This document shows positions 1,816 to 16,831 of a stretch of 24,000 nucleotides of DNA, piece after piece. Below the pieces are notes generated by a model. It was not told the DNA's origin and did no database searches. It worked only from the letters and a program-made list of their open reading frames with translations. Within the stretch, counting starts at the first letter, position 1. Each line of letters begins with the position of its first letter. The stretch covers positions 505,917 through 529,916 of the forward strand of contig NZ_JAIQZM010000001.1 in assembly GCF_023333595.1 (NCBI RefSeq), read 5' to 3'. A program made the position numbers and the translations under genes. Origin of the DNA: Argonema galeatum A003/A1. GTDB taxonomy: Bacteria > Cyanobacteriota > Cyanobacteriia > Cyanobacteriales > Aerosakkonemataceae.

Positions 1816-2055
1816 GTGCAACCATCCTTACATATCAAAACCAAAATTTTACCGGGAAATAAGATAGAAATTGAGATTCCCGAAGCTGCGATCGGCGATG
1901 CTGTGGATGTATTTGTCATTTTACCAGAAAAACCAGCCTCAAAACGGGGTTCTGCCGTAGAAATGATCGAACAAATCCGCAGTAAACGCCAGTTCAGAAG
2001 TGCTGAAGATATAGATAAGCAACTGCAAGAGGAACGGGATTCATGGGACAGCTAA
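1816..2055 (+). CDS. Type II antitoxin (VapB-like) paired with the downstream PIN toxin
   Basis: A 79-aa ORF with a GTG start, preceded by GAGGA at 1804-1808 (7-nt spacer). Its 3' end overlaps the PIN gene by 13 nt, which is the classic TA layout. The antitoxin fold itself is not recognisable by eye. Confidence 0.7.
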   Translation: MQPSLHIKTKILPGNKIEIEIPEAAIGDAVDVFVILPEKPASKRGSAVEMIEQIRSKRQFRSAEDIDKQLQEERDSWDS

Positions 2056-2486
2056 CACTTCCTTCATCTGGCATTATTTATGCTGACACATCGGTAGCGA
2101 TTTATACGATTGAAAGCCACCCTGACTATTATTCGCTACTGCAACCTCTGTGGTTAAAATTTCAATTACGCGAACTGGAAATAGCCAGCAGCGAACTAAT
2201 ATTGATGGAAACTTTAGTAGTTCCGTTGAGAAACGCTGATACTACTTTAATCAATGCTTACGAACAACTGCTTCTGTCATCCGAAATGCAGCTAATTCCT
2301 ATCAGCCAATCTATCCTGAGAGAAGTTGCAAATTTGAGGGCAACTACCAGTTTGAGAACACCTGATGCGATTCATGCTGCCACCGCTTTATCTATAAATT
2401 GTACCCTATTTCTGACGAACGATAAAGGCTTTCGCAATATTGCCAATTTACCCGTTGTTGTCCTCAGTGAAGTGTTGGCATCTTGA
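2043..2486 (+). CDS. vapC: PIN-domain ribonuclease toxin VapC
   Basis: A 147-aa protein with PIN acidic-residue contexts: IIYADTSV, LMETLVV, TPDAIHAATAL and FLTNDKGF. It overlaps the upstream small ORF. Confidence 0.8.
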   Translation: MGQLTLPSSGIIYADTSVAIYTIESHPDYYSLLQPLWLKFQLRELEIASSELILMETLVVPLRNADTTLINAYEQLLLSSEMQLIPISQSILREVANLRATTSLRTPDAIHAATALSINCTLFLTNDKGFRNIANLPVVVLSEVLAS

Positions 2487-2561
2487 ATTACAAAGTTTCC
2501 ACCGTTCATTCAGCCTCAATAGACATCTCCAGAAATTAAAGGTGCGTTACCTGTAACCCTT

Positions 2562-2600
2562 GTAGAGACGTTGCATGCAACGTCTCTACATTCTTTTTTG
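2562..2600 (+). terminator. Intrinsic terminator downstream of vapC
   Basis: A perfect 28-nt palindrome, gtagagacgttgca/tgcaacgtctctac (2562-2589), is followed by attctttttt with six T at 2594-2599. It lies 76 nt after the vapC stop, between convergent genes. Confidence 0.65.
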
Positions 2601-2619
2601 GAGAGGTCTAATACATTTT

Positions 2620-3033
2620 TTAGGGATACCGTCCTTGCTTAATCAAAATTTTACGTTGAAGTACACGACTGGGAGCATTAAACTTTAGTAATCTTACAGT
2701 AACTTCACCAATCTTAGTTATGCCTTGAATTCGACCGTTATTAAGAGAAAAATGCTCGTTCCAAACTTGACGGCGTGGGTTAAATAAAGGTACAATTTCA
2801 CCGCTAATAGAATCAATAGTAGCAAAATCAGAGCCTTTATAGCGGTTACAAGATAAACATGAAAGAGCTAAATTATCAGCACTGGTTTTACCCCCATGTT
2901 TAAGGGCGATGATATGATCTATCTCATGGCTATAGATAGAAACGTCTTGATGAATCAGGCAGTATTCACAACGTCCGAAAGCCCTTTCAATAACCAACTT
3001 ACGCAGTTCGGCAGAAATTAAATTAGAAGTCAT
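2620..3033 (-). CDS. HNH endonuclease
   Basis: A 137-aa protein with the HNH/zinc motif CEYC...HEIDHIIALKHGGKTSADNLALSCLSCNRYKG. Confidence 0.85.
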   Translation of the reverse strand: MTSNLISAELRKLVIERAFGRCEYCLIHQDVSIYSHEIDHIIALKHGGKTSADNLALSCLSCNRYKGSDFATIDSISGEIVPLFNPRRQVWNEHFSLNNGRIQGITKIGEVTVRLLKFNAPSRVLQRKILIKQGRYP

Positions 3034-3414
3034 TTAGTTAATGCCAGAATAAGCTCGTGCTTTTAGTAAAATCATCAGATGTTCTAGCTGTTCGTAAACA
3101 TCCAATTCTGCTACCTCTGGTGGAGTTAGCGTTGCTTCCCGATTTTTTGACAGCAAAGTTTGCAGCCGTGTTTGAGCTTGGGGAGAAACTTGAAAAGCAA
3201 CAATATCTTCCAGAGTCGGACTTTTGATTAAAAAGTCAATAACTTCTTGATAAACTGGAAAAATATCTGTAAAATTTGGGTTCACTTCTGACTGGATTGG
3301 TTGATAAATTTCAGGATTCTCCAGAACTTGCCAAAGCAGTTCCGGTAATCGCTCTTGCAAAGGTTCTAGGCGTTTAGCAAGTTCATCTGGAATTTGAATA
3401 GTTAGTTCTGCCAT
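3034..3414 (-). CDS. Small hypothetical protein translationally coupled to the HNH endonuclease (possible antitoxin or immunity partner)
   Basis: A 126-aa ORF whose stop codon (3034-3036) directly abuts the HNH start codon (3031-3033). The N-terminus MAELTIQIPDELAKRLE resembles those of cyanobacterial antitoxin-like small proteins. No family could be assigned. Confidence 0.6.
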   Translation of the reverse strand: MAELTIQIPDELAKRLEPLQERLPELLWQVLENPEIYQPIQSEVNPNFTDIFPVYQEVIDFLIKSPTLEDIVAFQVSPQAQTRLQTLLSKNREATLTPPEVAELDVYEQLEHLMILLKARAYSGIN

Positions 3415-3484: not shown

Positions 3485-6415
3485 TCAAATAATCTCCACC
3501 GTTCCCCTACTCCCATCAATTCGCACTCTTTGTCCATCGCGCAACAAACGAGTCGCATCGTGAATATCCATGACAGCAGGAATTCCGTACTCGCGTGCTA
3601 CGATCGCACCATGAGATAACCTGCCCCCTACTTCCGCAATTATCCCACCCGCACGCGCCAACAGGGGAGCCCAGCCAGAGTCGGTGTAAGGTACAACTAA
3701 TATCGTAGTGCGATCGATCTCGCCAACAGCTTGCAAATTCCGCAGCACCTTGACTCTACCCTCCGCAAGTCCTGGACTGGCACCAATTCCTTGCCACAGA
3801 TGGCTGGGGAAGCGATCGTCTATATTCGATGTGGGAGATGCTGCATTACCGTAGATTACTCGTGGAACTGTATCTAATTGTCGATGTTCTTCCAGTTGCG
3901 ATCGCCTTTCTGCTATCAACTGCGGCAACCGTTCCAGTAAATCTCGATCGTTTTGTGTTATAATTTGTTCGATTTCGGAATATTCTAGAAAAAAGATATC
4001 TCCACGTTCGCGAAGCACCACCGAATCAAGCCAGATTTGCTCGATCGCCACAAAACTCCAACGCAACTCGGCCAGCAACTTACTATAAACTTCAGTTACC
4101 CGACCCTTCAGATCGAGGCGACGCTGTACCGACTGAGCCTTCTTGCTAGTCTTTCCAGGCGGTACATATTCAGGAGGCAGATTCAGAACAAATTGTGCAA
4201 ACAGTTCCCTCACGGGGCTAGGATCTTCTTTCCAGGTGGGAACAGCAATATCGGTTCCCACATCGCTGAGATAGCCGTAAATGTCTAAAAACCGATCGAA
4301 CTGCTGTAAAATTGATTGTCCATCTGCAATTTCAGCTAACGTAGCAAAGATATTAGGTGCAATTTTTTGTGCTTCTAAAGGATTGATTCTTTCTGGTTGC
4401 GGTAACAAATGACGTGCAGCAGCAGCAAGTTGCTGGAGACTTCGCAAACTCGCAAGTTCCGGCGTCTTACCAGCATCAAGTTCTTCATCTTTTACTTTAA
4501 ATATTCCCTGTCGCAACGCCAAACTTAAAGGTGCCAAAATGCTGTAATAAGTAGCGCGTTTGAGTAATCCCAGGATGAAATTAATTCTTTCTAGTATTGT
4601 TTGTGGAGAGTTTAGAGATGTTGCACTGGGGTTCATATCGGCTAACCCTGGGGCAAAGTGGCGTCGATAGTCTCTTTGAAAATCCTTTTCCAAGCGCAAT
4701 TCGCGACGCCACAACCTGAGTAATCCCGGCAGATTTTGCAAAGTAGAACGCACAGGTGGTTTGCTAAACTTCGCGCCAAGAGTCAAAAACTCCAGACTTT
4801 CCGGCGGTAGTCCCATACGAAGGAAGATTTGCCCCAACAGGGAGGCGTTGAAATAAGCACGGGAGTAGTGCAGTGTAGCAGTTTCGTTGAAATCTAAACC
4901 ATGCGATCGCTTTCCCAACACCAGTGTAAAAATTTCTCCCCAAACACCACAAGTCAGAGGACGATTAATTGACCAAGTGAGAGGGCGAATTAATCCCGGA
5001 ATTACTTCGGCGGCTATCTTTCTTGTCCAAATCGGCCATAAAGTAGTGATCGGGCGCGATTGCAACAGCCACAGTGTTTCACCATCATAACTCCACTCAA
5101 TATCTTGCGGAATGCCATGATATCGCGCTTCCAAATCTCGTGCCAAAACAGCCACTTGCCGAATTAACGTTAATGGTACATCTCCGTTTCCCTCAACGCT
5201 AACAACACTCTGCTCCTCTGCCCCTCTTCCCCTCTGCTCCTCTGCTACCAAAGCGGCGTTTCTAACTATAACTCTGTATTGTTCTGGTGTGACTTTACCA
5301 GAAACTATTCGCGAAGCAGCGCCCGGTAAAGCTTCGATCGCAACTGCGTCTCCATATCCGAGCATAGGATCGCGGCTGAAGGCAACTCCAGAAAATGCCC
5401 CAAAAACTTGTTTTTGAATCAATACAGCCATTGCCGCCTCTGGGAGATGGCGCTGTTGTCGATATTCAACAGCACTCGATCGATCGTAAGAAGCCTGACA
5501 CCGAAGGATTGCTTGTTGCAAACCATCTCGGCTCGTCACATTTAAAATAGTTTCATATTGACCAGCCGCAGAAGCATATTCCGAATCTTCTCCTATCGCA
5601 GAAGAACGCACCACCAAAGGCGACGCTGGAGAAGGTTGCAAAGACTCAATCAAAGGTGTCGGGTCATCTCCTGGCGGCAAAACCCATCCATCTGGTACTG
5701 GGTAGCCCCAACGTTTTAGCTGAGATAATGTTGCAGCTTTTTGTCCTACTTTGGAAGCATCTAGCTGTTGGTTGAGAGAAATCATCGCTTTGTCGCCACG
5801 AAAAAAGCGAAACATTGCTTGAGAATCGCGCTGTCCTGCAACTGGTGCAAGATCTAAATCATCTGGCATTTTTTTATAGATCCATCCCATTAAAACAGCA
5901 AGTGCGATCGCAGCAAAGATACGCGCAGAATCCTGGGGATGCAGACCAGCCAATATCGCTGGTAACAGAATTAAAACCGCGATTCGTCCCGCATTACGCT
6001 CACGCAAAATTGTAAAGCCAATTCCCCCAATCAAAAACACCAATCCCGCTACCCGCACATCGTGAACGACAAAACCCCAGAAAACATTGGTTGTCCCAGC
6101 GCCTTTGCCCATCCAGTAGCGTCCCATCACCAAAGCAATCAGCGCAATTATTTCCCACTCCGAACCACTTGGAAAAAAAGCACGCGCCAGCATTACAGCC
6201 GCAATGCCCTTTCCCGCCTCCGATAGCACCGCTAAGATACCTGCAAGGGTTCCGCCGTGGTAGAAAGCAGCTTGAACTCCAATATTTCCAGTGCCGATTT
6301 CTCGCAGCTTGCGTCTTCTGAGTGCGTAAACAATCCACGCAATCACGGGTAACCCTCCTAAGAGGGGACAGAGGATGAAAATCAGCAAAACACCCCAAAC
6401 TTGGGTCAGTGTCAT
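3485..6415 (-). CDS. Fusion protein: PlsY-like (glycerol-3-phosphate acyltransferase family) membrane domain + PPDK_N ATP-grasp + helical middle region + C-terminal PEP-utilising swivel phospho-His domain
   Basis: N-terminal TM region with PlsY-like motifs: GTGNIGVQAA, SEAGKGIAAV and GKGAGTTNVFWG. PPDK_N motifs: KVGQKAATLSQLKRWGYPVPDGWVL and VVRSSAIGEDSEYASAAGQYETILNV. C-terminal mobile domain: ILVVPYTDSGWAPLLARAGGIIAEVGGRLSHGAIVAREYGIPAV. The start was moved to the ATG at 6415 (MTLTQVWG...) because the track start at 6460 is a TTG inside a heptamer repeat array. Confidence 0.85.
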   Translation of the reverse strand: MTLTQVWGVLLIFILCPLLGGLPVIAWIVYALRRRKLREIGTGNIGVQAAFYHGGTLAGILAVLSEAGKGIAAVMLARAFFPSGSEWEIIALIALVMGRYWMGKGAGTTNVFWGFVVHDVRVAGLVFLIGGIGFTILRERNAGRIAVLILLPAILAGLHPQDSARIFAAIALAVLMGWIYKKMPDDLDLAPVAGQRDSQAMFRFFRGDKAMISLNQQLDASKVGQKAATLSQLKRWGYPVPDGWVLPPGDDPTPLIESLQPSPASPLVVRSSAIGEDSEYASAAGQYETILNVTSRDGLQQAILRCQASYDRSSAVEYRQQRHLPEAAMAVLIQKQVFGAFSGVAFSRDPMLGYGDAVAIEALPGAASRIVSGKVTPEQYRVIVRNAALVAEEQRGRGAEEQSVVSVEGNGDVPLTLIRQVAVLARDLEARYHGIPQDIEWSYDGETLWLLQSRPITTLWPIWTRKIAAEVIPGLIRPLTWSINRPLTCGVWGEIFTLVLGKRSHGLDFNETATLHYSRAYFNASLLGQIFLRMGLPPESLEFLTLGAKFSKPPVRSTLQNLPGLLRLWRRELRLEKDFQRDYRRHFAPGLADMNPSATSLNSPQTILERINFILGLLKRATYYSILAPLSLALRQGIFKVKDEELDAGKTPELASLRSLQQLAAAARHLLPQPERINPLEAQKIAPNIFATLAEIADGQSILQQFDRFLDIYGYLSDVGTDIAVPTWKEDPSPVRELFAQFVLNLPPEYVPPGKTSKKAQSVQRRLDLKGRVTEVYSKLLAELRWSFVAIEQIWLDSVVLRERGDIFFLEYSEIEQIITQNDRDLLERLPQLIAERRSQLEEHRQLDTVPRVIYGNAASPTSNIDDRFPSHLWQGIGASPGLAEGRVKVLRNLQAVGEIDRTTILVVPYTDSGWAPLLARAGGIIAEVGGRLSHGAIVAREYGIPAVMDIHDATRLLRDGQRVRIDGSRGTVEII

Positions 6416-6452
6416 AAGTGCGCGGGAGTGGGAGAGTGGGAGAGTGGCAAGA

Positions 6453-6487
6453 AAAGTCAAAAGTCAAAAGTCAAAAGTCAAAAGTAA
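6453..6487. repeat. Heptamer tandem array, (AAAGTCA)x4 plus one degenerate unit
   Basis: aaagtcaaaagtcaaaagtcaaaagtcaaaagtaa, read directly. It is followed by a G-tract-rich segment at 6492-6545. Confidence 0.9.
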
Positions 6488-6697: not shown

Positions 6698-6801
6698 AAG
6701 TAGGTGGGCGTAAATAAACTGAACTCCCAGAAACCCGGTTTCTAAGAGAAACCGGGTTTCTAGGGGCCTGGAGTTTTACGTTTAAATATGCCCACCTACT
6801 T
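6698..6801. repeat. 104-bp imperfect palindrome (nested hairpin) upstream of the ATP-grasp gene
   Basis: The outer arms aagtaggtgggc (6698-6709) and gcccacctactt (6790-6801) are perfectly complementary. The inner arms agaaacccggtttct (6729-6743) and agaaaccgggtttct (6747-6761) form a perfect 15-bp stem with a 3-nt loop. Confidence 0.85.
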
Positions 6802-6849: not shown

Positions 6850-8283
6850 ATGCAATTTTATACCTACGATCCAGCAGATTTTTATGATGAACTGTTTGTC
6901 GCCAAGGGCAAACCCCGCCCTGATGCAACTCTTTTAATCGAAAGGATTAATGGGTTGCCGCCAGAGGAACTCCAGCGACGCCAGCAAGTCGCACAGCAAG
7001 CCCTTCTCAAGTTGGGAGCCACTTTCAACGTTTATGGCGATAACCGTGGCACTGAGCGCATCTTTCCCTTTGATGTCATTCCCCGCATTGTCTCGGCGCA
7101 AGAATGGACAGAGATGGAAAAGGGACTCAAGCAGCGCATCTACGCCTTAAATTGCTTTATAGCAGATATTTACGATGCCCAGAAAATTGTTACCGACGGC
7201 GTTATCCCGTTAGAATTAATTGCCTCTGCCAAAGGATTTCTCAAACCCTGTATAGGATTGAAACCACCGGGAGGAATTTGGTGTCATATCACTGGCACGG
7301 ATTTAGTGCGAGATAAAGATGGTCAGTGGTACGTTCTAGAAGATAATCTCCGCTGTCCTTCCGGTGTCTCCTACGTTTTGGAGAACCGCCGGGTGATGAA
7401 ATCGTCCTTTCCGAAGCTGTTTGAGACGATCGCAATTCGACCCGTCGATGATTACCCCAGTCATTTGCTCGAAACTCTCCTCAATCTAGCACCTGCCAAT
7501 TTAGCAGACCCCACCGTAGTCGTTCTCACCCCAGGTATTTACAATTCTGCCTACTTTGAGCATTCTTTCCTCGCTCAGCAAATGGGTGTGCAACTGGTGG
7601 AGGGCAGAGATTTGGTGGTGACGGATGGCTACCTGCAAATGCGTACTACCAAGGGATTGCAGCGGGTAGATGTGATCTATCGCCGCATCGATGACGACTT
7701 TATCGACCCTCTCGTTTTTCGCTCCGATTCCACATTAGGTATACCGGGTCTAACGGAAGTTTATCGCAATCGTCGTGTTGCGATCGCCAACGCCCTGGGA
7801 ACCGGAGTGGCAGATGATAAAGTGATCTATGCCTATGTCCCCGAAATGATTCGCTACTACCTCAAGGAAGACCCGATTCTGCAAAATGTCCCCACTTACC
7901 TCTGCTGGGAAGAGAAACAGCTAAATCATGTCCTTGCCAATTTAGACAAACTTGTGGTAAAATGCGCCAACGAATCTGGCGGTTACGGGATGTTAGTTGG
8001 CCCTCACGCCACACAGTCACAACGAGAAGAATTTGCCCAATTAATTAAAGCTAATCCGCGCAACTATATTGCCCAGCCGACACTTTGCCTGTCGCGAGTT
8101 CCTACAATAATAGGCGATCGCTTTGAGGGATGTCATGTGGACTTACGTCCCTACATTCTCTACGGTAAAGATATCTATGTACACCCAGGTGGTTTAACCC
8201 GCGTCGCCCTCAAAAAAGGTTCTTTAGTAGTTAACTCTTCCCAAGGCGGCGGATCGAAAGATACTTGGGTACTCGCTAATTAG
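6850..8283 (+). CDS. Circularly permuted type 2 ATP-grasp protein (DUF404/DUF407 family)
   Basis: A 477-aa protein with the family-typical N-terminus (YDELF...[37 protein letters not shown]) and the C-terminal [31 protein letters not shown]. It sits upstream of alpha-E and transglutaminase genes. Confidence 0.85.
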
Positions 8284-8370
8284 GGGCTAGGGGCTAGGGG
8301 CTAGGGGGAAGAGAGGGGCTAGGGGCTAGGGGCTAGGGGCTAGGGGAAGAGAGGGGAAGAGAGGAGAAGG
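8282..8370. repeat. G-rich tandem repeats (GGGGCTA heptamers plus GGGGAAGAGA units); contains the left 51-bp inverted-repeat arm (8314-8364)
   Basis: The repeats begin at the ATP-grasp stop codon. The segment (aggggct)x4 + aggggaagagaggggaagagagg at 8314-8364 is the exact reverse complement of 8942-8992. Confidence 0.9.
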
Positions 8371-8417
8371 AATAGCGGAAAATATAAGTTAATTTTTACG
8401 GTTTGGGGTGTACTACT

Positions 8418-8816
8418 ATGAGCATAAGCAGCTATCGAGATCTCAAGGTTTGGCAAGTCGGCATGGAAGTGGCAGACCAGATTTATCAGCTAACGGACAG
8501 CTTTCCAAAGCAGGAGATATACGGTTTAAGCAGTCAAATGCAACGGGCTGCTGTATCGATTCCTTCTAACATAGCTGAAGGACACGCGAGAAACTATACC
8601 AAGGAGTTCTTGCATCACATCTCCATCGCGCTGGGTTCGCTTGCCGAATTAGAAACTCAACTAATCATAGCTGCACGACGGCCTTATATTCAAAACAAGG
8701 CCGATATTGAAACACTTTTTCATAAGATGGAAGAATTGGGCAAAATGCTTCGCGGACTACAGAACTCTTTGGAAAATAAACTAAAAAGAGACAACAAACC
8801 GAGGACTGAAAACTAG
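8418..8816 (+). CDS. Four-helix-bundle protein (23S rRNA intervening-sequence protein / Avd-like family)
   Basis: Family signature YRDLKVWQ...A..IY.LT..FPK.E.YGL.SQMQRAAVSIPSNIAEGHAR....EF..HISIALGSLAELETQL. The ATG at 8418 is preferred over the track TTG at 8403. Confidence 0.85.
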   Translation: MSISSYRDLKVWQVGMEVADQIYQLTDSFPKQEIYGLSSQMQRAAVSIPSNIAEGHARNYTKEFLHHISIALGSLAELETQLIIAARRPYIQNKADIETLFHKMEELGKMLRGLQNSLENKLKRDNKPRTEN

Positions 8817-8828
8817 CGAAAGATTTTT

Positions 8829-8992
8829 CCCCAGCCCCTCTCTTCCCTCTCTTTCCCTAATCCCTAATCCCTCTCTTCCCCTAATCCCTAATCCCTCTCT
8901 TTCCCTAATCCCTAATCCCTCTCTTTCCCTAATCCCTAATCCCTCTCTTCCCCTCTCTTCCCCTAGCCCCTAGCCCCTAGCCCCTAGCCCCT
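8829..8992. repeat. C-rich tandem repeats: 24-bp unit ccctaatccctaatccctctcttY x4 (8855-8950), then (cccctag)x4; contains the right 51-bp inverted-repeat arm
   Basis: Read directly. The array ends 6 nt before the alpha-E ATG at 8999. Confidence 0.9.
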
Positions 8993-8998
8993 AAAAAA

Positions 8999-9949
8999 AT
9001 GCTTAGTCGCGTTGCAGATTCTATCTACTGGCTTAATCGTTATGTTGAACGGGCAGAAAATATTGCTCGTTTTATCAATGCAAATGTCAATCTAATTCTG
9101 GATTCCCCTACGGGTGTGGCGCAGCAGTGGGAACCGTTGGTGCTGACCACTGGCGACTTGCCTGTATTTCAGAATCGTTACGGGGAAGCTACAGCCGAAA
9201 ATGTAATTCAGTTTCTCACTTTCGATCGCGATAATGCCAACTCTATCATTTCCTGCCTTCGCTCTGCCAGAGAAAATGCTCGATCTATTCGAGAAATCAT
9301 TTCTTCAGAGATGTGGGAACAGGTGAATACTTTTTATTTCATGGTGCAAGATGCAGCCGAAGGACAAGCCACTTTTGAACCGCAACATTTTTTTAAAGAA
9401 GTAAAACTGGCTAGCCACCTATTTGCTGGTGTGATGGATGCCACCATGACTCATAATGAAGGTTGGCATTTCGGTCAAATGGGGCGGTTTCTAGAACGCG
9501 CAGATAAAACTGCTCGAATTTTAGATGTGAAATATTTCCTGCTTCTACCTTCGGTAAAAGATGTAGGCACCACGCTGGATGAATTGCAGTGGATGGGATT
9601 ATTGCGATCGGCTAGTGCTTACGAAATGTATCGCAAATGCCAACATCGCATTACACCAACTGGTGTGGCGGAATTTCTAATTTTAGATCGAGAGTTTCCG
9701 CGATCGATTCGATTTTGTCTGATGCAGGCGGAGCGATCTTTACATCAAATTACCGGATCTTCTCCCGGCACCTGGAGTAACCCCGCAGAACGTTCTTTGG
9801 GTCGATTGCGTTCTGAATTGGACTATTTATCCATTGAAGAAATCGTTCAAATGGGATTGCATGAATGTCTCAACGACTTGCAGCAGCAAATTTATGGCGT
9901 CGGCAACAACATTTTTGAAACCTTCTTTGCGTTAAAACCCATTAGTTAA
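8999..9949 (+). CDS. Alpha-E domain protein (DUF403 family)
   Basis: A 316-aa protein with the typical N-terminus MLSRVADSIYWLNRYVERAENIARF and the motif GWHFGQMGRFLERADKTARILDVKY. It is flanked by the usual partner genes. Confidence 0.85.
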   Translation: MLSRVADSIYWLNRYVERAENIARFINANVNLILDSPTGVAQQWEPLVLTTGDLPVFQNRYGEATAENVIQFLTFDRDNANSIISCLRSARENARSIREIISSEMWEQVNTFYFMVQDAAEGQATFEPQHFFKEVKLASHLFAGVMDATMTHNEGWHFGQMGRFLERADKTARILDVKYFLLLPSVKDVGTTLDELQWMGLLRSASAYEMYRKCQHRITPTGVAEFLILDREFPRSIRFCLMQAERSLHQITGSSPGTWSNPAERSLGRLRSELDYLSIEEIVQMGLHECLNDLQQQIYGVGNNIFETFFALKPIS

Positions 9950-9973
9950 TTTTATGTCTAACAGGAATATCCC

Positions 9974-10474
9974 ATGTCTATCGAACAGAAAAAAGAAATT
10001 GTCCTTCGATATTATGAGGAGTTCGACAATGGCAATTTAGACAAGATAGAGGATATGCTCAGTCCCAACTTTGTCGCTCATTTTCCCGGCTCGCCTGCAT
10101 CGCTAAATCGCGAAAAATTTAAAGAGTTTTGCCTCATGTTCCGCTCCGCTTTCCCAGATATTCGCCACAGCTTTGAAGATATCCTTGTAGAGGAAGATAA
10201 AGTTGTCACCCGTGGGATATTTGCTGCCACCCATAAAGGAAAACTGCAAGGTTTCCCTCCAACAGGTAAGCAGGTTACGGTATCATTCATTCACATAGAC
10301 TGCATTGTAGATGGAAAGATTGCGGAACATTGGGGAGAAGCTGACATGATGGGGATGTTGCAGCAACTCGGTACGATTATCTTGCCAATTCAGCTTGTTT
10401 TGCAGGGATTGAAAATTGGCGCGCTCGTCTTAACAGTTCTATGTCTCATCAGTTTCTTAATGACCAAATATTAA
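9974..10474 (+). CDS. SnoaL-like (ester cyclase / NTF2-fold) protein with a C-terminal transmembrane helix
   Basis: A 166-aa protein. KKEIVLRYYEEFDNGNLDKIEDMLSPNFVAH...FP..GKQV.V..I.I.....GKIAEHWGE is typical of SnoaL-like ester cyclases. The tail LPIQLVLQGLKIGALVLTVLCLISFLM is hydrophobic. The gaps to the neighbouring genes are 24 nt and 39 nt. Confidence 0.7.
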   Translation: MSIEQKKEIVLRYYEEFDNGNLDKIEDMLSPNFVAHFPGSPASLNREKFKEFCLMFRSAFPDIRHSFEDILVEEDKVVTRGIFAATHKGKLQGFPPTGKQVTVSFIHIDCIVDGKIAEHWGEADMMGMLQQLGTIILPIQLVLQGLKIGALVLTVLCLISFLMTKY

Positions 10475-10513
10475 CTGTCTGACTTAGTTAAAAATCTAAA
10501 ACCTAAAATCAGG

Positions 10514-11368
10514 ATGCGCTACCAAATCGTTCACACCACTACTTACATTTACGATCGAGCGGTCGTTTTAAATCCGCACATTATCAGGTTGCGATCGCGT
10601 TGTGATAGCACTCAGAAACTGCTTTCTTTTTTCCTGAAAATTGACCCGGAACCAATTGGTATTTCTCACATTACCGATTTAGACGGTAATGCCATACTGC
10701 AAACTTGGTTTGGTGGAACCGCAGATTATCTGAAAATCGAAGTACGCTCAGAAGTTGAAACTTATCGCACAAATCCTTTTGATTACCTACTAGAACCTTG
10801 GGCTTTAAGTCTGCCGATCGACTACCCAGCATCAATGTTATCCCAACTTCAGCCATATTTGCAACCGCAATATCAAATAAATGTAGACCCCGCAGTCATA
10901 CAATTGGCTCAAGATATTGGTTTTGCAGCCGATAATCAAATCAGTACTTTTTTAATGCAACTAAATCAACGCATTTATGAGAATTGCCAATATATTAGGA
11001 GAGAAACCGGCGAACCGCTTCCTGGTGGCGTCACTTGGAACCAAAAATCAGGTTCTTGTCGCGACGTGGCAGTTTTGTTTATGGAAGCTTGTCGCGCCGT
11101 AGGTTTAGCTGCTAGATTTGTCAGCGGTTATCAAGAAGGAGATCCAGATCAAAAGGAACGAGATCTTCATGCTTGGGCGGAAGTATACTTGCCGGGAGCG
11201 GGCTGGCGAGGCTACGATCCAACTGTAGGGTTAGTAGTGAGCGATCGACATATTCCTTTAGTTGCCAGCGCATCTCCCAAGTATACCGCACCCATTTCTG
11301 GAAATTTTTTAGCTCCTGGAAACCAGTTAGATATGACAGCTAGCATATCCATTCAATCATTAGCGTAG
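10514..11368 (+). CDS. Transglutaminase-like cysteine protease/ligase (Bact_transglu_N + transglutaminase core)
   Basis: N-terminus MRYQIVHTTTYIYDRAV..NPHIIRLR. Catalytic Cys context GSCRDVAVLFMEACRAVGLAARFVSGY. His/Asp context HAWAEVYLPGAGWRGYDPT. Confidence 0.85.
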   Translation: MRYQIVHTTTYIYDRAVVLNPHIIRLRSRCDSTQKLLSFFLKIDPEPIGISHITDLDGNAILQTWFGGTADYLKIEVRSEVETYRTNPFDYLLEPWALSLPIDYPASMLSQLQPYLQPQYQINVDPAVIQLAQDIGFAADNQISTFLMQLNQRIYENCQYIRRETGEPLPGGVTWNQKSGSCRDVAVLFMEACRAVGLAARFVSGYQEGDPDQKERDLHAWAEVYLPGAGWRGYDPTVGLVVSDRHIPLVASASPKYTAPISGNFLAPGNQLDMTASISIQSLA

Positions 11369-11407: not shown

Positions 11408-14400
11408 CTAAATTGGAATCTGAATCGCAAATTCCGTCCCCTCTTCTGGCGCAGAAATACAACTCAGCTTACCTCCATGCTTTTCTTCCACAATCTGACG
11501 CGAAATAGACAACCCCAAACCTGTTCCTTTCCCCACTGCTTTCGTAGTAAATAAATGGTCAAATACCTGCTCTTTTACCTCATCTGACATTCCACTGCCA
11601 TTATCTTTGATGCGAATAACGACAGCAGTTTCCGCTTCTAAAACTTCAGTGCGAATAGTAATCTGATTGGGATTGGCTGCAATTTCAGCAAAAGAACGCC
11701 CCTGATTTGCTTCATCCAAAGCATCGATCGCATTTCCCAAAATATTCATAAATACCTGATTCAACTGTCCGAAATAGCATTTTATTTGCGGAATTTCTCC
11801 ATATTCCTTAATCACCTCAATCGCCGGACGAGTATCCTTTGCTTTCAATCGATATTGTAAAATCATCAAAGTACTATCAATACCCTCATGCAGATTGGCT
11901 AACACTTTCGTTGAGGTATCGGCGCGGGAGAAGTTTCGCAACGACCCACCGATCTCGCGAATCCGATCGGTCCCGGCTTTCATCGACGAGAGCATTTGCG
12001 GCAAATCTTCTAAAATATATTCTAACTCAATCTCTTCCGCTTTTTCCGTTATTTCTTCTCCTGGATTGGGGAATTTTTCTTGATACAATTGCAAGTATTC
12101 CAGCAAATCTTGGAGCGCCGTATTAGCCTGCTCGACGTTCCCAGCAATAAACCCGACTGGGTTGTTAATTTCATGGGCTAAGCCCGCCATTAAATTGCCC
12201 AAAACTGACATTTTTTCACTTTGAATCAGTTGCAGTTGCGCTGATTGTAACTCTTGTAGCGATTTTGCTAGTTGCTCCGCTTTTTCTCGCTCTCGCGCTT
12301 CCGATCGCTGCAAATCCTGATAAAGTCTGGCATTTTTTAGAGCGATCGCCGCTTGAGAACACAACACTTTTAACACTTCTAAGCGTTCTCGCGTAAAAGC
12401 TGCTTTGGTTAAGCAATTTTCTAAGTACAAAATTCCAATCAATTCACCTTGATTCAGCAGAGTTGCACACAAAATTGATTGGGGTTTATGTAATTGAATG
12501 TAATAATCATCTGTCCATGTTGTTGCCGCTGCTACATCATCAATTACTAAGGTTTTTTTGGTATGTTTGACATAGTTGACGATCTTTTCAGGAATCAATT
12601 GACTATCTTCTACTGTAATTGATGATAACAAGGCCCAAACAGGTTGTTTGAGTCTGCTGTCGGCATTAATAGTAGCAGCAATATACCATTGCTCGGATTC
12701 AGGTAAAATCAAAGAACCACTTGTAGCGCCAGCATTTTCCAACACTACTTGCATCACTGTTGTGAGTAACTTATCGAGTTCGATCTCATCGGAAAGGTTT
12801 TGAGATGCTTTGAGGACAGTTCCCAAATCAAAAATAACTGAAGTCTCCCAACTCGTAGAACTAACTGTATTAGTCTTAATATAAGTAAGTGTCTGACTAA
12901 TTTTGGAGGTAGTTTTGGTCGCTGTCAGGATGGGAGCAAGTAATTGGGGATAGCGTGTTTCTAAATCATCTACTTTGGCTTTAGCTCCCCAACGAGCATA
13001 AGCATAGTAGGCTTTAGTAAGGTAGGCTTGTGCAATAAATTCTTTATGCAGAGATTCATAAAATTTTCCAGCTAATTCACAAGCGATCGCTTCTTCTTGG
13101 ATATATTCATTTGCCGTTGCTCCTTCGATCGCCAAATCGTAATATTCCATCGCTTCAAAATCAGCCCCTACTACCCGCAAGCGTTCGGCTTCAACTAGGT
13201 GAAATTTATGTAAATAATTCATCGGGGCATAATCTGCCCATTTTTTCAATTTTTCTTGGTTAGCTATTACCCGATCGAGCAAAACATCTTGCTCGGATTT
13301 TACTCCATTAATTCCTAAAGCAAGCTGGACTAAAGAATCGTAAAAATGGAAGATAGGAATAGCGAACATTCCCGTTACTCCATCTAAATACTGAACAGCT
13401 ATATTAGCATTTTCTAATGCTAAAGCATACTTTTCAAATAAATAGCCAAGAATCAGTTTATTTGAATAGAATATATGAAGTCCCAGTCGGTCATTAGCTT
13501 GAGTAAGAATCGGTAGTAATTGCTCCTCATCGCAGGCTTCACCTTGTAAATAGCATAGATTGGGAGAACGAGCGAGCAAATTTAAAATTGACTGCCGATA
13601 CATTTCGTTCCAATAAAACGGAATTTGTTGCTTCAATTGCTTTATTGCTTGGCTATAGGTAGCCATCTTATTTTCCGTTTCCTCCAGTTCCTTACCCATA
13701 TAATATGAATGGCAACATTCAAAGAAGGCGCAGTAAGCTGTAAATTCTAAATCTCCTGTTTCTAATCCACTTTGATATCCCGACCGCAAGTTTTCTAATG
13801 TCAATTTAAGATGATCTTTCCAATGTCTGATATATCCACAATCTACAGCGGAAATTTTGGCTTTTAGTTCCTGAACATTTAATTGAGACAGCAGTCGATT
13901 CGCCAATTTACCAAATTGATAACCCGACTCAATATCTTGGACGACACCACACAAAATTAGTCCGTAGCCAACATAAGCAAACGGAGAGAGATGACTATTA
14001 CCATATTTAATTGATAAATTAACTTGTGCAAAAACAATTAAGGGATATAACTCAGGAGTAGTTTTAAATGTAGAAGGAGCTATACTTGATAAGATCGGCA
14101 TTGCGGCTAACTTTTGTGGATCTGTCATAGCTGGCAAAGCGATCAAATCTTCTATATTTCTTTGCTGCAAATTTGCCGATGTTTCAGCTAAACCTTGCTG
14201 AATATCCGCTAAGGTTGGCCGTTCAGGAAAAGTTACTCCTAAAAGTTGCAAAATTTGCAGTCCCATATTAACTGACTCTTTGAGTCTAGTTTGCGCTGCA
14301 CTGGCTAAAATTTTCACTTCATAAACTTTCATTTTATCTAACAGCGTTGTCGCGCATTTCAGTACTGTTTCAGCTAATTGAGTCATCTGCTCAAAATCAG

Positions 14401-16831
14401 TGCTGAAATAAGCGGCTTCTGTTGCTTCTAAGTACAGGTTTAAGGTTAGGTTATAATCAGTTTGCCAGCTATCAGTAGCTAGGAGTTCTCTGCCTACCGT
14501 TAAATATTTTAGGGCTGTCGCATAAGCCGTCGCGGCTTTGGCTTTGCAACCTGCCATTAAATTCAATTGTGCTAGTTTATCGCGATCGATTTGCTCGCTA
14601 ATTAAATCTACACCATAATTTAATTGGTTGACAAGATCGAAGATTTTTTCTAACTGTTGCGCTTCTGGTGTATGCTTTAACAATAGCTGACCGATGTGGA
14701 AATGAGTTAGCTGTTTTTCGTTTTCATGGATTAATGAGTATGCTGCTTGTTGGACGCGATCGTGCAAAAATTTGTAACCTACTTTTGATTTATCAAAAAG
14801 TAGATTTACTTCGTTTTCTTGGTCAAATACGAGAGGTATTTTATAATCTTCACTCAAAGGTAAAATTAAACCCGCTTGTAAGGCAGGCCATAATTCATTG
14901 GCTGTATTTGAGTGGGGCCGATCGTTAACAATAGAAAGCACATCAAGAGTGAATCTGTCTCCTATGCAAGCTGCCAATTTTAATATTTGTTGTGTTGTTT
15001 CTGGCAGTTTTTCAATCCTACTTGCAACTAATTCTACTACGCTCTTATCGGCGATACCTATAGCTTGAATTTTATCTAAATTCCACTGCCAAGTAGCATT
15101 AACCAAGTCAAATCTTAGCAATTTTTCTTGAAACAGTGCTTGCAAAAGTTGGGTAATAAAAAAAGGATTTCCCCCGGTCTTGTTAAAGATTAGTTCAGCT
15201 AAGGTTTCGGACCGATCGCCCGTATCCAAAGTTTCCACAATCAACTGATTGACACGATCGAAATCTAAAGGTTGCACGATGATATTATTAACAACCCTAC
15301 CTGCTTTTTCAATCTCGGCAATACTTTGGATCAAAGGATGAGTCGGACTGACTTCATTATCTCGATATGCTCCAATTAATAGGAGATATTGACTAGCAGC
15401 ATTGGCTATCAGTAATTGCATTAAGTTTAATGAAGCCAAATCTGCCCACTGCAAGTCATCTAAAAAGATGACAAGCGGGTGTTCTTTTTGGGGAAAAACG
15501 CTGATAAATTCTTGGAAAACTCGGTTAAAACGGTTTTGCGCTTCCGCTGGGCCTAATTGCGGCACTTCTGGCTGAGAACCAATAATTAACTCGACTTCGG
15601 GAATAACATTAATAATAACTTGACCGTTATTGCCTACTGCTGCTAATAATTTGTCTTTCCAATTTAGGATTTTTACAGCACTTTCTGTAAGTAACTGCTG
15701 CATTAGCGATCCAAAAGCTTGAATCAAAGCGGCATAAGGAATGTTGCGTTTAAATTGGTCAAATTTACCGGCAATAAAATAGCCCCGTTGCTTGACTATG
15801 GGTTTATGAACTTCATTAATAACGGAGGTTTTGCCGATGCCGGAATAACCCGATACTAGGATCGTTTCACTGTTGCCATGCCCGACTCTAGCAAATGCAG
15901 TTAGGAGTTGATTAACTTCGGCTTCTCTGCCGTAAAGTTTTTGTGGGATTAGGAGTTGTCCAGCCCGGTCTAATTGTCCGGTAATAAAATTAGTAATTTT
16001 CCCTGTCGTCTGTAATAGGTGGTAACAAATTTCTAAATCTGCTTTAAATCCTTGGGGTGTTTGATATCGGTCTTCAGCATTTTTAGCCATCAATTTGAGG
16101 GTAATTTCTGAGATGGCTGGTGGAATTTGGGGATTTAATCGAGCGGGAGAAATTGGTTCTTTAGCAATATGAGAGTGTACGATTTCTAAGGGGTCGTTAC
16201 TGCTAAAGGGTAATTGACCTGTGAGGAGTTCATAAAATGTGACGCCAAGGGAATAAAAGTCAGTGCGATAGTCGAGTCCTCGGTTCATCCTTCCGGTTTG
16301 TTCGGGAGACATATAGGCGAGGGTGCCTTCGAGAACGTTGAAATTTTGGATAGTTTGGGTTTCTCTGGGTAAGAGGGAAGCGATGCTGAAATCTATTAAT
16401 TTAACTTCTTTAGTTTCGGGATGAATTAGGATATTTTGCGGTTTAATATCTTTATGGATAACTCGGTTTATGTATAGTCCTTCTAACATTTGGGCGATTT
16501 GGATCGCAATGGGGAAAAATTCATTAAGACTGAGAGGTTCGTTGCGGCGGTAGTCACTAAGGGCAATGCTACCATCGTCTGCCATTACTAATGCAAAACT
16601 GTTGCGGTAGTTTTCCAAACTTAGGGGTTGGACTACTCCGGGAATGTTGAGGTTTTTGGTAATGATGTATTGATTGCGAAACCGCACGAGTTCTGTAAAG
16701 CTGGGGTATTCGGCTTTGAGCAGTTTGACGATGACGGGTTTTGCTTGGGTTGTAGAAATTCCTCGATAGACTAGGGTTCTTGAGCCTTCGTAGATTTTTT
16801 CAAGTAGTTGGTAATTCGCTATGCCGACCAT
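11408..16831 (-). CDS. Multidomain sensor: Ser/Thr protein kinase + AAA/STAND ATPase + helical (TPR-like) region + GAF + histidine kinase (HstK-like architecture)
   Basis: STK motifs HKDIKPQNIL, DFSIAS and GTLAYMSPEQ. Walker A GYSGIGKTS and Walker B VIFLDDLQWAD. A GAF-like block precedes the coiled coil. H-box LAHEINNPVGFI, N-box NILGNAIDA, G1 DNGSGM and G2 GTGLGLSISRQIV. Confidence 0.9.
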   Translation of the reverse strand: MVGIANYQLLEKIYEGSRTLVYRGISTTQAKPVIVKLLKAEYPSFTELVRFRNQYIITKNLNIPGVVQPLSLENYRNSFALVMADDGSIALSDYRRNEPLSLNEFFPIAIQIAQMLEGLYINRVIHKDIKPQNILIHPETKEVKLIDFSIASLLPRETQTIQNFNVLEGTLAYMSPEQTGRMNRGLDYRTDFYSLGVTFYELLTGQLPFSSNDPLEIVHSHIAKEPISPARLNPQIPPAISEITLKLMAKNAEDRYQTPQGFKADLEICYHLLQTTGKITNFITGQLDRAGQLLIPQKLYGREAEVNQLLTAFARVGHGNSETILVSGYSGIGKTSVINEVHKPIVKQRGYFIAGKFDQFKRNIPYAALIQAFGSLMQQLLTESAVKILNWKDKLLAAVGNNGQVIINVIPEVELIIGSQPEVPQLGPAEAQNRFNRVFQEFISVFPQKEHPLVIFLDDLQWADLASLNLMQLLIANAASQYLLLIGAYRDNEVSPTHPLIQSIAEIEKAGRVVNNIIVQPLDFDRVNQLIVETLDTGDRSETLAELIFNKTGGNPFFITQLLQALFQEKLLRFDLVNATWQWNLDKIQAIGIADKSVVELVASRIEKLPETTQQILKLAACIGDRFTLDVLSIVNDRPHSNTANELWPALQAGLILPLSEDYKIPLVFDQENEVNLLFDKSKVGYKFLHDRVQQAAYSLIHENEKQLTHFHIGQLLLKHTPEAQQLEKIFDLVNQLNYGVDLISEQIDRDKLAQLNLMAGCKAKAATAYATALKYLTVGRELLATDSWQTDYNLTLNLYLEATEAAYFSTDFEQMTQLAETVLKCATTLLDKMKVYEVKILASAAQTRLKESVNMGLQILQLLGVTFPERPTLADIQQGLAETSANLQQRNIEDLIALPAMTDPQKLAAMPILSSIAPSTFKTTPELYPLIVFAQVNLSIKYGNSHLSPFAYVGYGLILCGVVQDIESGYQFGKLANRLLSQLNVQELKAKISAVDCGYIRHWKDHLKLTLENLRSGYQSGLETGDLEFTAYCAFFECCHSYYMGKELEETENKMATYSQAIKQLKQQIPFYWNEMYRQSILNLLARSPNLCYLQGEACDEEQLLPILTQANDRLGLHIFYSNKLILGYLFEKYALALENANIAVQYLDGVTGMFAIPIFHFYDSLVQLALGINGVKSEQDVLLDRVIANQEKLKKWADYAPMNYLHKFHLVEAERLRVVGADFEAMEYYDLAIEGATANEYIQEEAIACELAGKFYESLHKEFIAQAYLTKAYYAYARWGAKAKVDDLETRYPQLLAPILTATKTTSKISQTLTYIKTNTVSSTSWETSVIFDLGTVLKASQNLSDEIELDKLLTTVMQVVLENAGATSGSLILPESEQWYIAATINADSRLKQPVWALLSSITVEDSQLIPEKIVNYVKHTKKTLVIDDVAAATTWTDDYYIQLHKPQSILCATLLNQGELIGILYLENCLTKAAFTRERLEVLKVLCSQAAIALKNARLYQDLQRSEAREREKAEQLAKSLQELQSAQLQLIQSEKMSVLGNLMAGLAHEINNPVGFIAGNVEQANTALQDLLEYLQLYQEKFPNPGEEITEKAEEIELEYILEDLPQMLSSMKAGTDRIREIGGSLRNFSRADTSTKVLANLHEGIDSTLMILQYRLKAKDTRPAIEVIKEYGEIPQIKCYFGQLNQVFMNILGNAIDALDEANQGRSFAEIAANPNQITIRTEVLEAETAVVIRIKDNGSGMSDEVKEQVFDHLFTTKAVGKGTGLGLSISRQIVEEKHGGKLSCISAPEEGTEFAIQIPI

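Follow-up and report, generated by a model that had tools for sequence, protein, structure and literature searches.

A gene of the cyanobacterium Argonema galeatum A003/A1 encodes a protein in which a polytopic membrane domain with the fold of the acyltransferase PlsY is fused to a dikinase of the rifampin phosphotransferase (RPH) type. The gene is contained in a stretch of 24,000 nucleotides (nt) of the assembly GCF_023333595.1 (contig NZ_JAIQZM010000001.1, positions 505,917-529,916 of the forward strand), denominated here the window. Both modules are of known kinds; what is new is the coupling of an RPH-type dikinase to a membrane domain of PlsY fold, seemingly mis-named in the databases, and no study of such a fusion was found in the full-text literature. 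The fusion is given about an even chance of being a membrane-embedded "X, water dikinase" of the RPH type, the acceptor of which is probably an amphiphile of the cytoplasmic leaflet.

The gene lies in one minus-strand open reading frame (ORF), which spans positions 3485-6460 of the window when counted from the first TTG. Since the N-termini of the homologues all read MTLxQVWG, the start of the gene is set at the ATG at 6415 (Table 1). The 976-amino-acid (aa) product is 100% identical to an A. galeatum protein that NCBI names "glycerol-3-phosphate acyltransferase". A Pfam scan detects G3P_acyltransf (PF02660; residues 16-180, E 6.9e-18, 65.7 bits against a cut-off of 24.1), PPDK_N (residues 264-459, E 8e-45) and PEP-utilizers (residues 902-971, E 2.5e-23), and the precomputed Pfam annotation places Rph_4th (PF27448) between the ATP-grasp and the swivel domains. 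In a full-length AlphaFold2 (AF2) model built with 37 close homologues, residues from about 462 to 845 are helical, and the helices have predicted local distance difference test (pLDDT) values of 80-92. The phosphoenolpyruvate (PEP)/pyruvate triose-phosphate isomerase (TIM) barrel (PEP-utilizers_C, PF02896) gave no Pfam match at E up to 1, and the swivel domain sits at the C-terminus, not centrally as in PEP synthase and pyruvate phosphate dikinase. The scan agrees with a preliminary description of the gene, made from the sequence alone, which had listed a PlsY-like domain, an ATP-grasp domain, some 400 aa of helical sequence and a swivel domain with its phospho-histidine, and no TIM barrel. 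The same description had assigned the layout to RPH rather than to PEP synthase, and this is borne out both by the Pfam domains and by the finding of an RPH as the best relative in the PDB. The nearest NCBIfam models are PRK06241 "PEP synthase" subfamilies, the rifamycin phosphotransferase equivalog and the PigC/RedH ligases. All are far below their cut-offs (NF041857, 263 bits against 999; NF000283, 179 against 1700; TIGR01418, 186 against 740), the PigC and RedH models scoring the fusion protein at 214-217 bits. No PADLOC model of anti-phage defence proteins matched it at E up to 0.01.

Judging from the residues that it retains, the dikinase module appears to be fully active. Its best PDB match by sequence and fold is RPH-Lm of Listeria monocytogenes (5FBS/5HV1; NF041857), found at E 1.6e-54 with the single sequence and at E 7e-103 with the family profile; Foldseek aligns the full-length model to 5hv1 over 944 columns (E 1.3e-23). 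The two proteins have in common the order of ATP-grasp domain, helical Rph_4th and C-terminal swivel domain with its His, as well as the ATP-site residues. Lys22, Arg117, Thr136, Glu297 and His825 of RPH-Lm, the roles of which are taken from PMC4844700, correspond to Lys226, Arg270, Thr289, Glu440 and His935 of the fusion. Conversion of ATP to AMP, Pi and X-phosphate is presumably shared too. Conservation was counted, here and below, in 190 full-length members of the family. The RPH-type ATP-site and His motifs are kept in 189-190 of them, AGQ[YF] in 183 and LSH[GA]A in all 190; the codon of His935 occupies positions 3611-3613, within GGRLSHGAIVAREYGIPAV.

The middle domain opens with the near-invariant motif PIWTRKIAAEVIPGLIRPLTWSINRPLTCGVWG, recognisable also in the split forms described below. 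It is distantly similar to its RPH-Lm counterpart: the single-sequence alignment covers just the two ends, and the family profile aligns positions 662-962. In this profile alignment, which is of modest confidence, the RPH second-site residues Arg666, Glu667 and Lys670 are not kept and fall on Val776, Tyr777 and Leu780, and no Arg-Glu pair is found within one residue of the Arg666/Glu667 position. RPH-Lm in turn lacks the N-terminal PlsY-fold domain of about 190 aa, and nothing points to rifamycin as the substrate of the fusion.

The N-terminal domain is a true homologue of PlsY, not a canonical PlsY, as judged from alignments and predicted fold. A PDB search with the single N-domain sequence found nothing and one with a narrow profile reached PlsY at merely E 0.53, so that broader profiles and hhalign were required. 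Aligned by hhalign to canonical PlsYs, the fused N-domains score a probability of 99.3% (E 1.8e-20, 171 collinear columns), and a broader family profile finds Aquifex PlsY 5xj5 at E 2.8e-11. The full-length AF2 model has pLDDT of just 30-55 across the membrane domain, and gives no reliable word on domain docking. A model of the domain alone, obtained from an alignment of 134 diverse sequences, fused and stand-alone, reached pLDDT 89.4 and a predicted template-modelling (TM) score of 0.87. Foldseek matches the latter model in the PDB only to PlsY (5xj5-5xj8; TM-scores 0.67/0.72, root-mean-square deviation 2.9 A, 181 columns, E 1e-4), the next match having E >1. TIGR00023, the PlsY equivalog (cut-off 137.2 bits), is absent from the 25 best NCBIfam matches of the fusion protein, among which the sole PlsY-related model displayed is PRK14416 (23 bits against a cut-off of 222); on TIGR00023, by contrast, canonical PlsYs reach 177-181 bits. 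The resemblance to PlsY, pointed out together with the divergence from it in the preliminary description, is seen also in the hhalign probability and in a fold matching PlsY only. Loops rich in Arg and Lys are found at residues 32-38 (RRRKLRE, in a rich stretch reaching residue 39), 138-144 (RERNAGR) and 181-182 (KK). The charged loops, and the fusion itself, argue for a location of the conserved motifs and of the C-terminus at the cytoplasmic side, as in PlsY. The PlsY topology, in which active site and C-terminus are cytoplasmic (PMC5700162), agrees with the positive-inside loops of the fusion protein and with a cytoplasmic dikinase module.

Residues were mapped by three alignments onto Aquifex aeolicus PlsY (5XJ5-5XJ9; TIGR00023; PF02660), whose structures define the residue roles (PMC5700162). 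In motif 1 (GTGN in 190/190), Asn44 is the counterpart of the oxyanion residue Asn37 and is kept in all members. Thr42 stands at the position of PlsY Ser35, Gln48 at that of Thr41 (Ser in 156 members, Gln in 34) and Tyr52 at that of Arg45 (Tyr in 185/190); PlsY Asn42 is replaced by Ala in the cyanobacterial clade of the fusion. The D-x-x-K-G of PlsY is here E66-x-x-K69-G, kept in 190/190. G98-R99 is found where PlsY has Gly-His, the pattern GR[YF], and with it the change of His92 to Arg, being present in 190/190. The Gly-rich loop, preceded by a deletion of 5-7 residues relative to PlsY, is the counterpart of loop 3, or "phosphate hole" (KGGKGVAT), and keeps the form G.GTTN in 188/190. The residue before the loop, in or near register with PlsY Lys104, is Lys in 160 members and Arg in 22 (Lys/Arg in 182/188). 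Arg136 is common to PlsY and the fused domain, and Ser142 is replaced by Arg144. Motif 3 of PlsY (H177-x-x-N180-I-x-R-L) is replaced by an acidic stretch fitting the pattern K-[IM]-P-D-D-L (PDD in 189/190). Here His177 and Asn180 have no His or Asn counterpart: depending on the alignment, the former falls on Tyr180 or Lys182, the latter on Met183 or Asp185. Across the 134 fused and stand-alone relatives G41, N44, E66, G98 and D186 are invariant, and T42, K69, T109 and D185 are found in at least 90%.

The fused domain and PlsY have hence in common the fold, G-x-G-N with Asn37, D/E-x-x-K-G, loop 3, Arg136 and the topology, and differ in the above replacements, in the deletion, in the 780-aa dikinase that the fused domain carries and in its membership of the subfamily called below type b. 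The unusual GTGNIGVQAA in place of SGNxGxTN and the missing His in the GH..P block, already remarked in the preliminary description, are found at residues 41-50 and at G98-R99. They had been taken there for signs of neofunctionalisation. As the motif changes are family-wide (GTGN, GR[YF], PDD and LSHGA in 189-190/190, G.GTTN in 188/190), neofunctionalisation, not decay, is the explanation that fits. The glycerol-3-phosphate (G3P) pocket of PlsY consists of the clamp Ser35, Arg45, Lys104 and Asn180 and of the 2-OH ligands Ser142 and His177. Arg45, Asn180, Ser142 and His177 are replaced, some of them by acidic residues; Lys104 and a Ser35-to-Thr change remain. At the acyl-phosphate site loop 3 and Asn37 are kept, His92 has become Arg and Thr41, in this protein, Gln. 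Going by these correspondences, the membrane domain keeps the elements that hold phosphate at the membrane interface. The tested mutations at Arg45, Asn180, His92 and His177 each cost Aquifex PlsY most of its activity (PMC5700162). Acylation of G3P by the membrane domain appears very unlikely, because Arg45, Ser142, His177 and Asn180 are replaced and the Aquifex mutants are crippled.

The residue analysis suggests that the names "glycerol-3-phosphate acyltransferase" and "pyruvate, water dikinase" are both wrong. That one of them is right, and the protein a functional PlsY or a pyruvate, water dikinase, is very improbable. Such names are automatic NCBI, UniRef and JGI labels, and PF02660 does score above its gathering threshold, but TIGR00023 is not among the 25 best matches, His92 is lost together with the G3P ligands, the TIM barrel is missing, and PEP-synthase and RPH equivalogs are far below cut-off. 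Cyanobacteria have moreover a separate, essential PlsY, Sll1973 (PMC10114076). They possess in general plsX and plsY (PMC5716074, PMC10114076), and the review literature gives Sll1973 as the cyanobacterial PlsY, with no mention of a second PlsY-like protein.

One genome per species was scanned with the N-domain profile, and the best 80 loci were examined further. At least 539 species-level genomes, essentially all of cyanobacteria, encode a relative of the PlsY-like domain, which in the best 80 loci belongs to the large and well-conserved fusion gene. The best 80 loci belong to cyanobacteria or to unclassified metagenome-assembled genomes (MAGs), except one in a MAG labelled Tatlockia. More than 120 full-length protein clusters are 65-100% identical to the fusion protein, and every named one is cyanobacterial. 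Cyanobacterial-type copies were observed in two MAGs labelled as non-cyanobacterial, the mentioned Tatlockia sp. (L084) and one of the Vampirovibrionales (P0126); both taxon labels are most likely binning errors.

The preliminary description had considered that the fusion might result from an assembly join, with a stop between separate genes in the relatives. An uninterrupted ORF of 941-1067 aa was found in 70 of the 71 loci, among the best 80, that have enough downstream sequence, hence the fusion is not an assembly join. A second search for N-domain homologues retrieved mostly contig-end fragments, of use only for alignment depth. Such short entries, numerous in the databases, and the decayed versions of some lineages are the facts that would suit an artefact of assembly or annotation, or a pseudogene in decay, an explanation to which practically no credit is given. 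It is refuted by the intact loci, by the full-length clusters at least 65% identical and by the catalytic motifs intact in 188-190/190 members.

Decayed cyanobacterial relatives were found among the 50%-identity representatives (P0386, P0286, P0300, P0248, P0256, P0258, P0245, P0269). The clearest case is P0386, SYNPCC7002_A0291 of Synechococcus/Picosynechococcus PCC 7002: its motif-1 loop is deleted, the ATP-grasp VRSSAxGED is gone and the swivel His is changed to Gln. Even so, at least eight strains have the ORF of 900 aa intact. Loss of catalytic elements is only partial in P0256, P0258 and P0248. It is possible that the decayed homologues are pseudoenzymes kept for a non-catalytic role. 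Given its decayed copy, PCC 7002 is a poor basis for extrapolation to the fusion family.

The N-domain profile was also searched exhaustively against 1.84 billion representative proteins. In addition to fused proteins of 870-1150 aa, two kinds of proteins of about 200 aa were retrieved. Canonical PlsYs feature GSGNxGATN, GH, KGGKGVAT and HRxNIxRL. Proteins of the second kind, called type b, feature GTGN, lack His92, have Asp-Asp for motif 3, and score 68-90 bits on TIGR00023 (cut-off 137). To type b (hhalign E 3.8e-28, the PDD motif aligning with the DD of the stand-alone proteins) the fused N-domain is more similar than to canonical PlsY, and it derives therefore from the type-b lineage, not from a recent copy of cyanobacterial plsY. 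The position of His92 is occupied in split and stand-alone relatives by Thr, Val or Ile; split-type relatives keep Thr41, Asn42 and Lys104, and have Lys at the position of Arg45. Stand-alone type-b proteins from Chloroflexi/Dehalococcoidia MAGs (P0320, P0349, P0464) have His177 beside the Asp-Asp, and two of the three have Arg45; no dikinase neighbour is present in L086, the one Chloroflexi-type locus inspected. On these residues, such proteins may be still-working PlsY variants, and type b would not be uniform.

Eight stand-alone type-b loci were inspected. In three of the eight, all on unrelated non-cyanobacterial contigs (L087, L091, L092), a gene encoding an RPH-like protein of 783-797 aa (PPDK_N, Rph_4th, PEP-utilizers) adjoins the PlsY-like gene. 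Between the two there is an overlap of 23 nt in L091 and of 65 nt in L092, a contig from an NCBI MAG with the label Proteobacteria; the genes of L087 are divergent and about 1 kb apart. The L091 and L087 dikinases are 28-30% identical to residues 207-973 of the fusion, middle domain included (E 1e-88 to 1e-92). The split pairs have their nearest relatives in P0323 and P0330, fused proteins from metagenomes, which implies that fusion or fission of the same modules took place more than once. Split and fused pairs provide the strongest evidence that the two modules work together. Distribution of the modules between polypeptides has a parallel in HpeHI of Rhodococcus (PMC12167813).

A gene for a DedA/VTT membrane protein is found in two of the three split loci, a set made of a glycosyltransferase family 2 (GT2) gene, a small ORF and a PMT_2 gene in one, and a set of PIG-L, GT4 and histidine-phosphatase genes also in one. 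Over the eight stand-alone loci the figures are 3/8 for RPH-like genes, 2/8 for DedA and 1/8 for GT2 or PMT. The neighbours give a hint, an anecdotal one, of envelope or lipid-carrier metabolism. In both L091 and L092 the pair is followed by a weakly DUF3108-like gene; the syntenic L093 has one after its lone PlsY-like gene. The split loci bear also on a different explanation, according to which the PlsY-like domain transfers acyl groups from acyl-phosphate to a new acceptor, and the dikinase makes or activates this acceptor, or regulates the transferase by phosphorylation. We regard it as improbable. Acyl-phosphate-side features are partly kept, the split-type relatives keep Thr41, Asn42 and Lys104, with Lys at the position of Arg45, and glycosyltransferases and a PIG-L deacetylase would be consistent with the synthesis of an unusual glycolipid; but there is no acceptor to propose, single contigs are the source of the context evidence, and the cyanobacterial clade has Ser/Gln for Thr41 and Ala for Asn42.

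The favoured reading, a membrane-embedded dikinase, builds on the observed architecture, fold, conserved residues, distribution and genetic coupling of the modules, from which we infer a role of the PlsY-fold domain as acceptor site and the nature of the substrate. The cycle can be modelled on RPH (PMC4844700), HpeHI (PMC12167813) and HapC (PMC13534948). ATP would bind to the ATP-grasp domain, and His935 of the swivel domain would accept the beta-phosphate, AMP and Pi leaving. The swivel domain would then shift to an acceptor site formed by the helical RPH-like domain and the cytoplasm-facing PlsY-fold pocket, where the phosphoryl group would pass to a lipid head group, yielding a lipid phosphate. 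Phosphate hole, Asn44, Arg99 and the Lys/Arg would receive the head group in the PlsY pocket, now remodelled, and the Asp185/Asp186 pair might hold Mg2+ or serve as base. Such a dikinase would account for the invariant pocket residues, the changed G3P side and the genetic coupling of the modules. It has to be added that several of the kept residues (the loop-3 phosphate hole, Asn37, and Thr41 as Ser in most members) serve in PlsY the acyl-phosphate side or the catalytic centre.

The characterised RPH-type enzymes phosphorylate hydrophobic small molecules, namely rifampin (PMC4844700), phenolic ketones in the case of HpeHI (PMC12167813) and the prodigiosin precursor MBC in the case of HapC (PMC13534948). 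HpeHI and the prodiginine ligases PigC, HapC and RedH (PMC12167813, PMC13534948) resemble the fusion in combining ATP-grasp and swivel His and in acting on such molecules; unlike the fusion, they are soluble, have aromatic or pyrrole substrates, and lack a membrane domain. Conversion of a free fatty acid to acyl-phosphate is the leading candidate reaction, because acyl-phosphate is, to our knowledge, the only lipid substrate or ligand known for the PlsY fold, and the energetics of a dikinase suit a high-energy product. Cyanobacteria are not known to possess a fatty-acid kinase, and are described as relying on Aas (PMC10114076). The second candidate is the phosphorylation of a lipid alcohol, such as polyprenol, which would agree with the neighbouring DedA, GT2 and PMT genes and with the chemistry of the best-characterised relatives, which act on hydroxyls (rifampin, phenols). 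A soluble kinase of the DhaK/DhaL type, FakA, converts ATP to ADP and works with a separate fatty-acid-binding protein. FakA/FakB of Gram-positive bacteria have no sequence or fold kinship to the fusion and are functional analogues only: if a fatty acid is the substrate, both systems would make acyl-phosphate for PlsY-type synthesis (PMC10146087, PMC10114076).

The preliminary description had proposed ATP-driven phosphorylation of a membrane lipid or fatty acid, coupled to a PlsY-like transfer. In a specific scheme of this kind, the dikinase would make acyl-phosphate from a free fatty acid, and the PlsY-like domain would hand the acyl group to an acceptor other than G3P. The known lipid ligand of the fold speaks for it, as do the invariance of Asn37, the proposed oxyanion stabiliser, and the frequent Ser at the Thr41 position. 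HapC-type relatives are moreover proposed to activate a carbonyl compound by phosphorylation for condensation (PMC13534948), and on general thermodynamic reasoning two spent phosphoanhydride bonds suit a high-energy acyl-phosphate. An acceptor site cannot however be named, since Arg45, Ser142, His177 and Asn180 are replaced, partly by acidic residues; His92, needed in PlsY for acyl-phosphate binding, is Arg here and Thr, Val or Ile in split and stand-alone relatives; and Aas is described as the cyanobacterial route of fatty-acid activation (PMC10114076). Coupled transfer seems to us quite unlikely.

Several points weigh against a dikinase acting on a lipid in the PlsY-fold pocket. The searchable literature holds no biochemical or genetic data on the fusion. 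A reach of His935 to the PlsY-like pocket draws no support from the full-length model, whose membrane part has low pLDDT; the phosphate hole of Aquifex PlsY is moreover deep in the membrane (PMC5700162), which concerns the fatty-acid version as well. The highly conserved middle domain could hold the whole acceptor site, as in RPH. P0256 has lost the motif-1 loop and kept ATP-grasp and His, which weakens a constant need for the pocket. Five of the eight stand-alone type-b loci have no dikinase gene nearby, and gene context in the 80 cyanobacterial loci is of no help toward function. The fatty-acid version has against it also that the acyl-phosphate ligand His92 is not conserved, and that Aas is the route by which cyanobacteria are described to activate free fatty acids (PMC10114076).

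Some of these points would suit an alternative in which the PlsY-like domain merely tethers a soluble RPH-like dikinase, and a hydrophobic metabolite or xenobiotic is phosphorylated in the middle domain as in RPH. The middle domain is strongly conserved and homologous to the RPH substrate domain, the substrates of the known family members are small and hydrophobic (PMC4844700, PMC12167813), and P0256 is one of some relatives that have kinase motifs and no PlsY motif-1 loop. A separately encoded anchor would however be odd, and stand-alone PlsY-like genes do adjoin or overlap separate dikinase genes; the phosphotransfer dyad Arg666/Glu667 is not kept; and from a mere anchor one would not expect that the polar residues of the pocket stay unchanged in fused as well as in split and stand-alone relatives. 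The tether is judged rather unlikely.

The reading of the fusion as a lipid dikinase can be pushed further. The fusion and its split relatives from other phyla might represent an undescribed form of lipid activation, in which a dikinase converting ATP to AMP and Pi phosphorylates a lipid inside the PlsY-fold pocket; in the most exciting version acyl-phosphate would be made directly from free fatty acid, in a variant polyprenyl phosphate from polyprenol. This extended proposal is unlikely as it stands. If it is true in the acyl-phosphate version, cyanobacteria would have an entry to PlsY-type glycerolipid synthesis independent of Aas and PlsX. Under the extended proposal the dead copies, as that of Synechococcus PCC 7002, would be pseudoenzymes with a structural or regulatory role. 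If the fusion is a lipid dikinase, it would represent a new enzyme class in cyanobacterial, possibly thylakoid, lipid metabolism, would extend RPH-type small-molecule dikinases to membrane substrates, and would be the first functionally distinct relative of PlsY, so far a single-function fold. In cyanobacterial strains for biofuels, the routes by which fatty acids are recycled and activated are targets of engineering.

Table 1. Coordinates of the fusion gene, of its domains and motifs (window positions), and of the lipid/envelope genes at split loci (positions in the respective loci)
Feature	Position	Strand	Basis
Fusion gene, complete, 976 codons + stop	3485..6415	minus	ORF list; homologue N-termini
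PlsY-fold polytopic membrane domain, residues 1-190	5846..6415	minus	PF02660, hhalign, AF2, Foldseek
Motif 1, G41-T-G-N-I-G-V-Q-A-A50	6266..6295	minus	alignments; GTGN in 190/190
Arg99 (PlsY His92), then Gly-rich loop G103-K-G-A-G-T-T-N110	6086..6121	minus	alignments; 190-member count
P184-D-D-L-D-L189, acidic, at membrane exit	5849..5866	minus	PDD in 189/190; replaces motif 3 H177-x-x-N180-I-x-R-L
ATP-grasp nucleotide-binding domain, residues 216-460	5036..5770	minus	PPDK_N; alignment to 5hv1
Helical middle domain (Rph_4th), residues 461-870	3806..5035	minus	PF27448; AF2; family profile
Phospho-histidine swivel domain, residues 871-976	3488..3805	minus	PEP-utilizers E 2.5e-23; RPH-Lm alignment
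Lipid/envelope neighbourhood of split loci	L087 5276-5989; L091 4378-5025; L092 5744-7312		inspection of the loci

The flanks of the 80 loci were compared all-against-all, and three individual cyanobacterial loci were also viewed. No conserved gene neighbour was found in either set. The commonest neighbours are psbA (D1), in 9/80 loci (e.g. L079, L070), and an ORF of 142 aa encoding a bactofilin-like protein, in another 9/80; neither is general, nor is the DAGK_cat lipid-kinase gene located downstream of the fusion gene in Gloeocapsopsis. In A. galeatum the gene upstream is divergently transcribed, and belongs to a conserved set of circularly-permuted ATP-grasp, Alpha-E and transglutaminase genes (window positions 6850-11368, plus strand). 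Two genes interrupt the set, one for a 23S_rRNA_IVP four-helix bundle (8403-8816), the other SnoaL-like (9974-10474); the circularly-permuted ATP-grasp gene adjoins the fusion gene in 6/80 related loci. The intergenic region between the fusion gene and this CP_ATPgrasp_2 gene hosts a perfect hairpin with a stem of 18 bp (CCTAGAAACCCGGTTTCTCTTAGAAACCGGGTTTCTGGG; 6726-6764); it might have a regulatory role, terminate transcription in both directions or represent a small repeat element.

Positions 11408-16831 (minus strand) encode a signalling protein of 1807 aa, made of Ser/Thr protein kinase, AAA_16, GAF and HisKA/HATPase_c domains. A 496-aa ORF at 22471-23961 (minus strand) weakly matches the Cas12f1-like TNB domain (E 1e-3), and may encode a TnpB-like transposon-associated nuclease. 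Downstream of the fusion gene are found a PIN-domain gene (2043-2486, plus strand), an HNH endonuclease gene (2620-3033, minus strand) and, abutting the latter, an ORF of 126 aa with no Pfam match (3034-3414, minus strand); the genes of the whole region 2043-3414 seem to form a small cluster of mobile or toxin-like character.

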